From the IMG/VR virus record IMGVR_UViG_643348545_000007: a stretch of DNA of 63,899 bases; one strand, written 5' to 3'. This DNA comes from a virus (Duplodnaviria > Heunggongvirae > Uroviricota > Caudoviricetes). The position numbers are program-made. Positions 44,801 to 47,800 of the stretch are shown piece after piece. The first letter of the stretch is position 1. Every line of letters begins with the position of its first letter.

Positions 44801-47800
44801 CCTGTTATCCGGAGTGCTGTTATTCAGAACGGGAACTTTCAGGTTGATTCTCAGGGTAACCTGAATATTGGTGGCCTTTTTAGTGTTACGTCGCAGGGGC
44901 AACTGACAATTCGTTACTCTAATCAGAATGTGGGGCTGGTGATCCGCAATGATAAAATTGAAGTTTATGACCAGAACGGACGCCTGGCTGTTCGCATAGG
45001 CAGGTTAAGCTGAGCCGGAGGCTGACATTGGCAGAATATGGTTTTGCAATATACAACAGAAACAATGTTAATGTTACGGGCGTGCTTACTCCCATATTTT
45101 TCCTGGACAGGTTTACGGCGGAGTCGGGATCAAAAACGTATACGAATAAACCAGAAGGGAAAACATTGCAGGCAGTCTGTTCATTATTTCCGTGGAATAA
45201 TGTATTTAAGGACCGGAAAGTACCGAAGATAACCATTAATGGCAATACGGTGACGTGGTCGAATCTTGAGCAGGGGATGGGGTCATATATTTATACATTC
45301 TGGGGGTGAGTTGTATGTATGGTTTAAGCATTACGAAACCAGATGGCAGCTTGTGGATAAGCCCGGGGTTTACGCCTCAGTGTCTGATCAATAAGGGAAC
45401 TATTCCGGCGACTGAGAAGGCTTTTTTTAAAACATCAATCCCGTCAGGAAAAAGTTGTTTTTTCTTTATCAGAACAGAGAAAAAGGCCGATGTCATGTAC
45501 ACACATGAACAGATTGATGGATATCATGCCTTAAGGCTTCATCAAATTGTCAGGGGAACGAATCCTGGTGTTACGACTGTTTATGCTTTTGCGAATATGG
45601 TTACTCAACCTTCTGAGTATGGTATTGCCATGTATAACCCGTCGGGTGAGATGATTTACCATGGCGAAATGATGCTGCTTGACGCGAAGTTAATACCTGT
45701 TGATATCAAATTTGAAAAAGACCTCGGATATCCATGTGCAATTATGCCTGCACTGGTTGGGTATTATAACTGGCAGCGTACACCTTATGACCGACCGATT
45801 TACACCACATCAACGGGGGCTACAGGAAATAAAATATATTCCTGTGAGCATTATTCCGGTCGTGCAACATGGGATATTCGGAAGCCGTATATAGATAAAG
45901 TGTTGGTCATTAATTCATCAATATATGACTGATATGCCTGTCAGTATGAATATTAAGTAATAAAACTAAATTCATCTTAGATAATACGGGGTTATTTTAT
46001 TATAGGAAAAGTCTAAAAATGAAACATGCCAGAATTATTTTTGCGTGCACAACTTTTGTGATGAGTTTTGTAGCAGCCCCTGCCTGTGCAGCACAAGGTG
46101 ACAGTACAGTTTCTTTCGGATACGCTCATCTTCAGCTCTCTGGACTGAACAATTTTGTTAAGGATTTAAGTCTTTATAATCTTGATACTTTTAACCGTTT
46201 TACAAACAGACACTACTTCAATTCAGGCGAATATGCAGATGCTTCTGTCCGGGGGCATGATGGCAAAGGCAAATCTCCTCAGGGGATGAGCATCAGGTAT
46301 CGTTATGAGATAACGGATGAGATTGGTGTTATAACATCTTTTACATGGGCGCGTTCTATGACTAATGCGCAGGCATTTATTGACATTAACCCAGGAGATG
46401 AATCCAGAGAGGTTAAAAATCCGGCAGCTTCAGCGAGAACTGATATCAGGGCTAATTACTGGAGCCTGTTAGCGGGTCCTTCGTGGCGGTTTAACGAATA
46501 CCTCAGTGTGTATGCAATGGCTGGTATGGGCGTAGCTAAAGTTACCGCTGACCTGAAAATTAAGGACAACATTAACAGTACCGGTGGATTTTCTGAAAGC
46601 AACAGTACGAAAAAAACAGCACTTGCATGGGCTGCTGGTGCACAATTTAACCTGAATGAAAGTGTTGCTATGGATGTCGCGTATGAAAGCTCCGGATCTG
46701 GTGACTGGCGCACGAGCGGGGTTGTTGTAGGTATTGGCCTGAAATTCTGATCTGTATCCGACAACATGTCATAACCCGCTGTGATGGCGGGTTTTTTGTT
46801 GCCCGTGCAGGGCAAAAATCGTAGATTATGCGCGGGTGCCTTTCGGCTGATGGCTGGAAGGTGAACCTGAAGGCCTGATGTGGAAAGGCCCCGAGTCAAC
46901 TTTAATGTTAACCCGAGGCCCTGACCGTACAACCTTCACAAGTAGTAGGTTAGCGCCTCTCCACTCAGGAGACAAGCGTTATGTCGCAAAAATCGCTCAT
47001 CACCGTCACAATTTGTATGACGGTAATCTTCACCATCTGGATGTTACACGGCTCGTTGTGTGAGTTCCGGCTGAATTTGTGGGGAGCGGAGTTTGCGGCG
47101 TTCTTACAGTGTAAGCAGTAGGAAAACCGCGACGGGGACGAAAGTCCCCGTCAACTGGTTGCTGAGGTTCAGCCGATATGGCACCCGTTTCAGGTGAGAG
47201 AATGGACGACAGAATTCTCCGGTATATGCAGCGTGTTGTGAGAAATTCCCGCAACCCTGAATTTATGAATGAAGTTAAAGACGCCTGCCTTAAAAAGCAG
47301 GCGTTTTGCTTTGAAGCGCCGGATGGTTTTCTGGTGCTGCGTTCTGTGCTCAGTGACGATGGTATCCCTTATGTTCTGGTGTTACTGGGCGTGTGTACGG
47401 GGAGTAAGAGTGTTGAGCGTTATCTGCCGGAGGTGAAGACATTAACCCGCCTGGCTGGCGGACGCTGGGCCGAATTTCATACGGCAAGACGAGGATTTAT
47501 CCGGCTGGGAAAACGTCTGGGCTTTGAGCGAATGCCGGATGATGAGGATGGCTTCATGGTGTTCAGGATAGCAGTCTGACTGCCACTGTATTCATCATCG
47601 AGCGTAAACCCACATTGCAATTCACATTCTGACCCTGCTCCGGCAGGGTTTTTTGTTATCTGAGGAGCCATTATGGGCGGAAGTAAAGGTGGTGGTGATA
47701 CCAAAGTAAAACCAACAGCAGCGCAAATAGCACAGGAAGAGGTGGCCTGGAAAGGGTGGCAGGATTACAAAAATATTCTCCGTCCGGCAGAAGATAACTT

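Follow-up and report, generated by a model that had tools for sequence, protein, structure and literature searches.

A probable hok/sok-type type I toxin-antitoxin cassette downstream of lom in a 933W-like Escherichia coli prophage

A Hok-family toxin gene and the elements around it

The IMG/VR virus record IMGVR_UViG_643348545_000007, a stretch of 63,899 nt (hereafter the window, meaning the whole stretch analysed), carries a 46-codon gene of the Hok/Gef toxin family between the outer-membrane protein gene lom and the next tail-region gene. We analysed this gene and its surroundings, and positions 46799..47186 very probably form a complete type I toxin-antitoxin (TA) cassette of the hok/sok type, the type known from plasmid R1. 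Relatives share its boundaries, its two promoter-like sites, the hairpin on the antisense strand, and a compact fold of the mRNA that shows covariation. The elements referred to below are listed in the order of the plus strand, where ORF stands for open reading frame, SD for Shine-Dalgarno sequence, and MFE for minimum free energy.

46773-46793 and the following T-run, plus strand: terminator of lom, from the terminator scan
46799..46827, plus strand: putative hok promoter; −35 TTGCCC (46799-46804), 17-nt spacer, −10 TAGATT (46822-46827)
46834..47186, plus strand: predicted full-length hok mRNA, ~353 nt, from GGGUGCC to GGCACCC; the unit of homology
46834..46850, plus strand: 5′ box, equivalent of tac, GGGUGCC UU UCGGCUGA; pairs with 47169-47186 in the full-length RNA
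46878..47063, plus strand: 61-codon frame taken for mok in an earlier note on this DNA; SD-like GAAGG at 46869-46873, 4 nt before the ATG
46879..46939, minus strand: predicted Sok-like RNA, ~61 nt; 18-nt 5′ tail (46939-46922), 35-nt hairpin (46921-46887), then UUUCCACA
46947..46975, minus strand: putative Sok promoter; −35 TTGTCT (46975-46970), 17-nt spacer, −10 TAACCT (46952-46947)
46952..46980, plus strand: hairpin enclosing the hok SD (46967-46971); outer stem AGCGC / GCGUU, inner stem UCUCC / GGAGA
46981..47121, plus strand: hok, encoding a 46-aa Hok/Gef toxin; ATG at 46981, TAG at 47119-47121
47084..47101, plus strand: coding-region box that pairs with the hok start-codon region (46981-46998) in a 16-pair helix of the MFE fold
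47131..47152, plus strand: 9-bp GC-rich 3′ hairpin with a perfect stem, GACGGGGAC-GAAA-GUCCCCGUC, between the hok stop and the 3′ box
47154..47168, plus strand: 3′ segment that pairs with 46932-46946, a partner covering the Sok start site and most of the Sok-tail target (46922-46939)
47169..47186, plus strand: 3′ fold-back box, equivalent of fbi, UCAGCCGA UAU GGCACCC; pairs with 46834-46850, and homology with relatives ends here

The earlier note had assigned a Hok/Gef toxin with a good ribosome binding site (RBS) to 46981..47121, and both the coordinates and the family held up. The ORF translates to MSQKSLITVTICMTVIFTIWMLHGSLCEFRLNLWGAEFAAFLQCKQ and is preceded by AGGAG at 46967-46971, 9 nt from the ATG. 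Against the Pfam family HOK_GEF (PF01848), residues 8-44 of the 46-aa peptide scored 33.2 bits (E = 4e-8) where the curated cut-off is 22, and the match to the Hok motif is therefore not fortuitous. The peptide begins with a single hydrophobic helix, the mean Kyte-Doolittle value exceeding 1.5 in the 15-residue windows that start at residues 3-13, and continues with SLCEFR and then AEFAAF. SLCE occupies residues 25-28, of which L26, C27, and E28 were invariant in 13 relatives; in the published Hok logo, L30, C31, and E32 count as conserved. A protein search returned 56 Hok homologues from E. coli, Shigella, and Salmonella, nearly all 46 aa long, in which the C-terminal AEFAAFLQCK was invariant, and all those with a source name were labelled Hok/Gef. 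The ORF was intact in 89 of 89 related loci, a count that is partly built in because the locus filter itself demanded an open frame of 40-50 aa. Judged from these sequence features, the 46-codon gene is a real Hok-family membrane toxin, and tblastn found no second hok-like gene in the window.

The protein itself was already on record. RefSeq, annotated by the Prokaryotic Genome Annotation Pipeline (PGAP), carries the identical sequence as WP_000078907.1, "Hok/Gef family protein," and one GenBank phage record also annotates the ORF, whereas many others, such as PhiR5_2 and those records of Shiga toxin 2a (Stx2a)-converting phages that have no feature at the matching DNA, leave it unannotated. 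The remark in the earlier note that the locus had been missed thus applies to many phage GenBank records and not to RefSeq/PGAP. Without a single amino acid difference, the peptide is also listed as 72_1589, and cloned as LRP157, by Escalera-Maurer et al. (bioRxiv 10.1101/2025.08.07.668861), where it falls in a high-abundance 60%-identity cluster, Hok cluster 72. In that preprint 42 of 45 tested Hok homologs were toxic, and since 72_1589 is not among the three constructs named as non-toxic (19_179, 60_1482, and 69_1540), toxicity of the identical peptide on induction is implied; going by the published text, it appears to arrest E. coli growth upon induction. The Hok variant of P2 prophages, 72_1621, which is 74% identical to the window Hok, was cloned for the same toxicity assay and is likewise not named as non-toxic. 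The authors state that mok, Sok, and mRNA structure were outside their analysis, so that the RNA anatomy and the lom and ogr insertion sites described below add to their work and do not contradict it. With the protein annotated in RefSeq and the identical peptide catalogued and assayed, the novelty that had been implied for the locus does not stand: the element is of an ordinary kind and already known, and is very probably a genuine hok/sok-type cassette with all its parts.

Fold of the hok mRNA and its conservation

The putative hok promoter begins directly 3′ of the lom terminator, and its hexamers are kept in the P2-type cassettes as TTGCCG and TAGATT. The succession TAGATT-ATGCGC-GGGTGCC in the window parallels TATAAT-AGCGGC-GGGTGC of hokC, and this mirrored layout places the likely 5′ end of the mRNA at 46834, which is also where the match to the Rfam family RF01794 starts. 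The MFE fold of 46834-47192 had an energy of −150.3 kcal/mol (z = −5.9). In this fold the full-length mRNA is closed by pairing of its two ends, in the manner of tac and fbi of R1. The 5′/3′ duplex had an energy of −30.7 kcal/mol in the window and of −22.8 to −34.8 kcal/mol across 24 distinct 5′/3′ combinations. Conservation was assessed on 58 distinct related cassettes, in which the two end-pairing helices were 96.7% and 87.1% paired; compensatory changes between the 5′ and 3′ boxes occurred in the two most distant relatives, namely CGACC / GGTCG in Citrobacter and CGAT / ATCG in Salmonella diarizonae. Fold-back elements are present in an R1-type layout, with pairing of the 5′ and 3′ boxes kept across relatives. 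RNAalifold, run on a MAFFT alignment of the 58 cassettes, did not recover the 5′-3′ pairing because the 3′ box was poorly aligned, and the end pairing was instead examined sequence by sequence and with the named structure. In a model of the trimmed RNA, the 5′ box was predicted to switch its pairing to GGAAAGGCCCC (46883-46893).

The interior helices were kept as well. In the hairpin enclosing the SD, the outer stem was 99.6% paired, with one-sided changes only, and the inner stem 74% paired. The helix between the start-codon region and the coding-region box (46981-46998 / 47084-47101) was 98.9% paired, and among relatives six of its pairs had changed on one side and one on both sides. In the helix 46939-46946 / 47154-47161, two pairs switched between clades (GC in 30 and AU in 25 cassettes; AU in 30 and GC in 26). 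Over the whole fold, 92.5% of cells were paired, compared with 37-42% when the partners were slid by one to three columns, and 29 pairs had changed on both sides, compared with 15.0 ± 2.2 in shuffles, none of the 500 shuffles being as high.

The last third of hok (GGAGCGGAGTTTGCGGCGTTCTTACAGTGTAAGCAG, 47084-47121) was almost invariant at the DNA level in E. coli, Salmonella, and E. albertii, synonymous sites included. Such near-invariance at synonymous sites points to a constraint from the RNA, through pairing with the start-codon region, besides that from the protein.

The stable hairpin that the earlier note had seen after the hok stop is present and well conserved: 99.8% of its cells were paired, and four of its nine pairs showed compensatory changes (for example, AU in 33 and GC in 24 cassettes). 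It is not the end of the transcript; as in the R1-type locus, it precedes the fold-back box (47169-47186). In the terminator scan, it scored as an intrinsic terminator (47130-47153) on the minus strand alone, where the stem is followed by CGGTTTTCCT. By analogy with R1, the hairpin is a likely stop for 3′ exonucleolytic trimming and not a plus-strand terminator. No minus-strand gene that would need a terminator lies near 47130-47153.

A predicted antisense RNA in the hok leader

A minus-strand arrangement of TTGnnn, a spacer of 16-18 nt, and TA[AG]CCT was found in 52 of the 58 cassettes, and AGGTTAGCGCC of the putative Sok promoter region was nearly invariant among them. The minus-strand fold of the Sok region had z = −5.7. 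Its hairpin folded in all 13 sequence variants and was in each case more stable on the minus strand (mean −21.4 kcal/mol, versus −13.0 kcal/mol on the plus strand) because one to three of the pairs are G.U; this asymmetry speaks for the antisense transcript as the structure under selection. The antisense RNA predicted here has the shape and location of the 59-nt sokC annotated in K-12, and by this homology it would span from about 46939 to about 46879. The 18-nt 5′ tail was the most variable part of the cassette, which would fit a role in specific recognition. At the level of sequence, then, the locus has a predicted cis antisense RNA with its own putative promoter and complementarity to the hok leader. 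The suggestion in the earlier note that an antisense Sok was likely here is backed by strong sequence signs, namely the promoter, the hairpin, and the homology to sokC.

Comparison with known hok loci

An element-by-element alignment showed the locus to be collinear both with hokC/mokC/sokC (gef) of K-12 and with an R1-type plasmid locus. The R1 hok/sok system was compared through the identical Hok on the IncFII plasmid NZ_CP128973. Both loci have, in the same order, a weak promoter, a 5′ G-rich box, an antisense target hairpin (GCCCCG...CGAGGC), an antisense promoter within the leader, the SD AGGAG, a toxin with SLCE-x-R, a GC hairpin, about 30-35 nt, and a 3′ box complementary to the 5′ end. 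The antisense promoter of the R1-type locus, TTGCGC-17-TATCCT, is arranged like that of the window, and its 3′ hairpin, GGCGGGC-GCAG-GCCCGCC, lies at the equivalent place. The two differ in that UUUU comes after the R1 hairpin on the sense strand and not after that of the window, in that the R1 mok ATG (CCCATATG) has no counterpart in the window, and in that one is a plasmid and the other a phage locus. In K-12, the leader of hokC can be aligned with the window over the GGGTGC 5′ end, the GCCCCGAGT...AACCCGAGGCC hairpin, AGGAGA, and the ATG; the 3′ box could not be compared because the insertion sequence (IS) IS186 adjoins hokC there.

The window Hok was 28% identical to R1 Hok (52 versus 46 aa) and 24% identical to HokC, and its identity to R1 Hok, Flm, HokB, HokC, HokD, HokE, PndA, and SrnB ranged from 22 to 33%. 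On these sequence comparisons, the window hok is a separate paralogue within the Hok family.

One candidate identity was rejected. The hokW-sokW locus of the Sakai prophage Sp5 (Takada et al. 2021, PMC8621323) is a hok/sok locus in an Stx2 prophage of the same kind, and experiments have shown it to be a type I TA pair which, once the prophage is induced, makes lysis faster and the release of phage twice as high. HokW, however, has 51 aa, starts with MKQQKAM, and belongs to the HokD cluster; the window Hok is only 33% identical to it and is a different gene. The HokW start sequence was absent from the window even with three mismatches, and the hokW primers from PMC8621323 matched nothing there. 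Fozo et al. (2010) counted 14 Hok/Gef genes in O157:H7 Sakai.

Evidence against a complete R1-type cassette and the fate of the mok frame

Several results weigh against the interpretation of 46799..47186 as a complete cassette of this type. In the consensus promoter scan, the hok sense promoter and the Sok promoter were both below threshold, and all RNA ends and promoters of the cassette were inferred. The Rfam scan gave no match at the hok locus at the gathering threshold; the match of RF01794 (sok) to 46834-46992 reached 35.6 bits (E = 1.1e-5), below the gathering score of 59. The match covered the full length of this 157-nt model, lay on the sense strand of hok, and reached from the 5′ end of the mRNA up to the AUG of hok. 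A sub-threshold match on that strand says nothing about an antisense RNA: what RF01794 matches indicate is a hok leader and not a Sok gene. Duplexes of the strength of that between the 5′ and 3′ boxes were found at 16 other positions of the 31,936 tested in the window, so that position and conservation, and not energy, carry the argument for end pairing. The structure used for the covariation analysis was itself derived from the window sequence. Modelled 3′ trimming raised the accessibility of the SD only from 0.20 to 0.28 and that of the AUG from 0.24 to 0.28, a gain so small that modelling does not decide the control mechanism. Finally, the ORF that begins at the ATG/GTG pair (46878 / 46880) reaches hok in only 18 of 56 distinct cassettes. 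In R1, hok translation requires the mok frame; with that frame not conserved here, the step by which translation is blocked in R1 cannot simply be transferred to this locus, and its application here is uncertain.

The last point bears on whether the locus is a canonical R1-style one, in which 46878..47063 would be a working mok, hok translation would be coupled to it, and Sok would block the mok start. The frame is open in the window, where it overlaps hok by 83 nt and has the SD-like GAAGG upstream, and the ATG/GTG pair is kept in 56 of the 58 cassettes. The ATG at 46878 lies right next to the predicted 3′ end of Sok, and in Citrobacter (locus L010 of our set) a leader ORF with a GTG start overlaps the AUG of hok at its end, in UGAUG. 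Nevertheless, the proportion of frames reaching hok has to be set against a chance expectation of ~0.3 for an unselected frame, a figure roughly estimated rather than computed. In the commonest and closest Stx-phage variants, the leader ORF stops 27-78 nt upstream of hok; a conserved stop for a short leader ORF was not found, the stops being scattered from −78 to −27 relative to the hok ATG. The ATG of mokC aligns to CGTA at 46926-46929, and no relative has a start codon at this homologous position. As for the conserved ATGTGGAAAGGCCCC, it is the complement of the Sok 3′ tail, and its GGAAAGGCCCC portion is the alternative partner of the 5′ box in the trimmed RNA; its conservation can therefore be explained by RNA pairing alone, without coding. 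An R1-style locus with a working mok is accordingly unlikely, and the assignment of 46878..47063 as mok, made in the earlier note, was not borne out. Unlike R1, this locus probably needs no long mok frame overlapping hok for its control.

Genomic setting and spread of the cassette

The gene upstream of the cassette, 46019..46750, encodes an Ail/Lom outer-membrane protein according to Pfam. The cassette region was 100% identical to E. coli chromosomal DNA, 99.8% identical to phage PhiR5_2, and ~95% identical to many Stx2a-converting phages (Sepvirinae); the cassette sits as an accessory insert in a 933W/Sepvirinae-like E. coli prophage, with lom on one side and the next tail-region gene on the other. 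The same or similar DNA was present in 1,551 of 5,426 complete E. coli genomes (29%), some of them with up to seven copies and all of them together with ~1,970, and in 198 phage records, and copies also occurred in Salmonella enterica, S. diarizonae, E. albertii, and Citrobacter braakii. Copies of ~80% identity aligned over 46814..47186 and nothing beyond on either side, which defines the conserved unit as running from the sense promoter through the GGCACCC box.

The position of the cassette differs between phages, being 3′ of lom in 933W-like phages and 3′ of ogr in P2-like prophages. This indicates a small module acquired by two unrelated temperate phage lineages. In five E. coli chromosomes (L012-L016), the whole ~80%-identical cassette lies ~190 bp 3′ of ogr, before the chromosomal flank of a P2-like prophage, and the prophages in question occupy different loci, next to tRNA genes, ihfA, serS, flk, or raiA. 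A literature search for hok adjoining lom or ogr found nothing relevant.

Individual copies depart from the common form. A record with tandem hok cassettes (L065, IMGVR_UViG_2671181127_000013) has its two hok ATGs at 1029 and 1501, ~470 bp apart, and the first cassette encodes the divergent peptide MPQKTIIVSILCLTMLLAIWMIHRSPCEFRLNIMWSEFAAFLQCKQ. In another record (L034, IMGVR_UViG_2529293141_000015), the promoter and 5′ box are swapped for unrelated sequence and the remainder is intact, making it a natural truncated variant. An 857-bp contig labelled Xanthomonas pisi (100% protein identity) and contigs of a Planococcaceae metagenome-assembled genome and of Vagococcus sp. (L005, L006, and L008) also carry the E. 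coli phage cassette; these look like enterobacterial contamination or mis-binning.

The spread of the cassette also bears on whether it could be a decaying relic whose toxin ORF survives while the locus is no longer expressed or regulated, like the IS-disrupted hok loci of K-12. Fozo et al. noted that some chromosomal hok-sok loci have degenerated and are apparently non-functional, and here mok is lost in most copies, both promoters are weak by consensus, and some copies are damaged, such as L034 with its replaced 5′ part. Decay is nevertheless hard to reconcile with compensatory changes that maintain the RNA helices between clades, with retention of the cassette by phages of two unrelated lineages and by 29% of the complete E. 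coli genomes, with the reported toxicity of the peptide (bioRxiv 10.1101/2025.08.07.668861), or with the intact ORF of all related loci, even if the filter favoured the latter. We consider a relic highly improbable.

Possible control of hok without mok

By analogy with the R1 mechanism (reviewed in PMC4147584), control of the cassette might proceed as follows. The weak promoter would make a stable ~353-nt hok mRNA that is inert at full length, its 5′ box paired with the 3′ end and its SD, start codon, and most of the Sok-tail target held within helices; this closed mRNA would be neither translated nor bound by Sok. Slow trimming of 34 nt from the 3′ end, back to the hairpin at 47131-47152, would free the 5′ box and the Sok target. 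Both the 3′ box and the segment that pairs with most of the Sok-tail target do lie in the 34 nt 3′ of the hairpin, a layout compatible with activation by 3′ processing. The short, unstable antisense RNA of ~61 nt would then pair with 46879-46939, block translation, and expose the duplex to RNase III. Once antisense synthesis stopped, Hok would be made and inserted into the inner membrane, leading to depolarisation or lysis.

How pairing at 46879-46939 could silence hok without mok is a separate matter. One possibility, to which we give a little under even weight, is that the antisense RNA, bound 40-100 nt upstream of a closed hok RBS, either brings about cleavage by RNase III or takes up a standby or unfolding site in the way of IstR-1 on tisB, perhaps aided by a short leader ORF of variable length. 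It would account for a cassette in which mok is not conserved and all other elements are, and in which hok has an AGGAG of its own at 9-nt spacing within a conserved hairpin. Frames for mok have been reported for the experimentally studied hok loci, which counts against control independent of mok; the argument for such control is, moreover, inferential throughout, and thermodynamic modelling showed no clear single-stranded platform. Antitoxins that act at a distance via a standby site are described in the review PMC4147584, and tisB/istR-1, where the antitoxin RNA binds far upstream of a closed toxin RBS, offers a possible model if mok is dispensable. The likeness is an analogy only, for the toxins belong to unrelated families, transcription of IstR-1 is divergent, and it is 5′ and not 3′ processing that activates tisB.

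More tentatively still, the cluster-72 cassettes could be proposed as a mok-less sub-family in which a Sok-like RNA, acting 40-100 nt upstream of a hok RBS locked by structure, controls it by way of RNase III, of a site for standby or unfolding, or of a short leader ORF whose length varies. Carried by 933W-like and P2-like phages, such a module would come on once the antisense promoter falls silent, whether through late read-through transcription or through induction of the prophage. For the phage, the benefit may lie in killing cells that lose the prophage, in helping lysis after induction, as with hokW-sokW, or in excluding other phages.

As a discovery the locus carries little weight, its toxin being in RefSeq, catalogued, and reported toxic. 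It is of practical use in that many deposited Stx-phage genomes lack the hok annotation while the cassette is common in E. coli, and the cassette could alter the lysis timing and phage yield of Shiga toxin phages, as the sister locus hokW-sokW does (PMC8621323). The one point of wider interest is the apparent lack, in a hok/sok cassette so well conserved, of the mok frame that the textbook mechanism requires.

Other features of the prophage

The PGAP start of the gene downstream of the cassette (ATG at 47178, ORF 47178..47579) falls within the 3′ fold-back box GATATGGCACCC; an in-frame ATG at 47202, preceded by AGGTGAGAG, looks the likelier start. Farther on in the tail-gene region, at ~48788-49039 (5039-5290 in L001), PGAP annotates a small ORF as "bacteriocin" (WP_000540391.1), which phage records give as a hypothetical protein. 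No tRNA genes were found in the window. At the gathering level, Rfam matched isrK at 17670-17747, C4 antisense RNA at 17773-17857, two copies of STnc100 at 21495-21688 and 21964-22172, and sRNA-Xcc1 at 62233-62318 on the minus strand.

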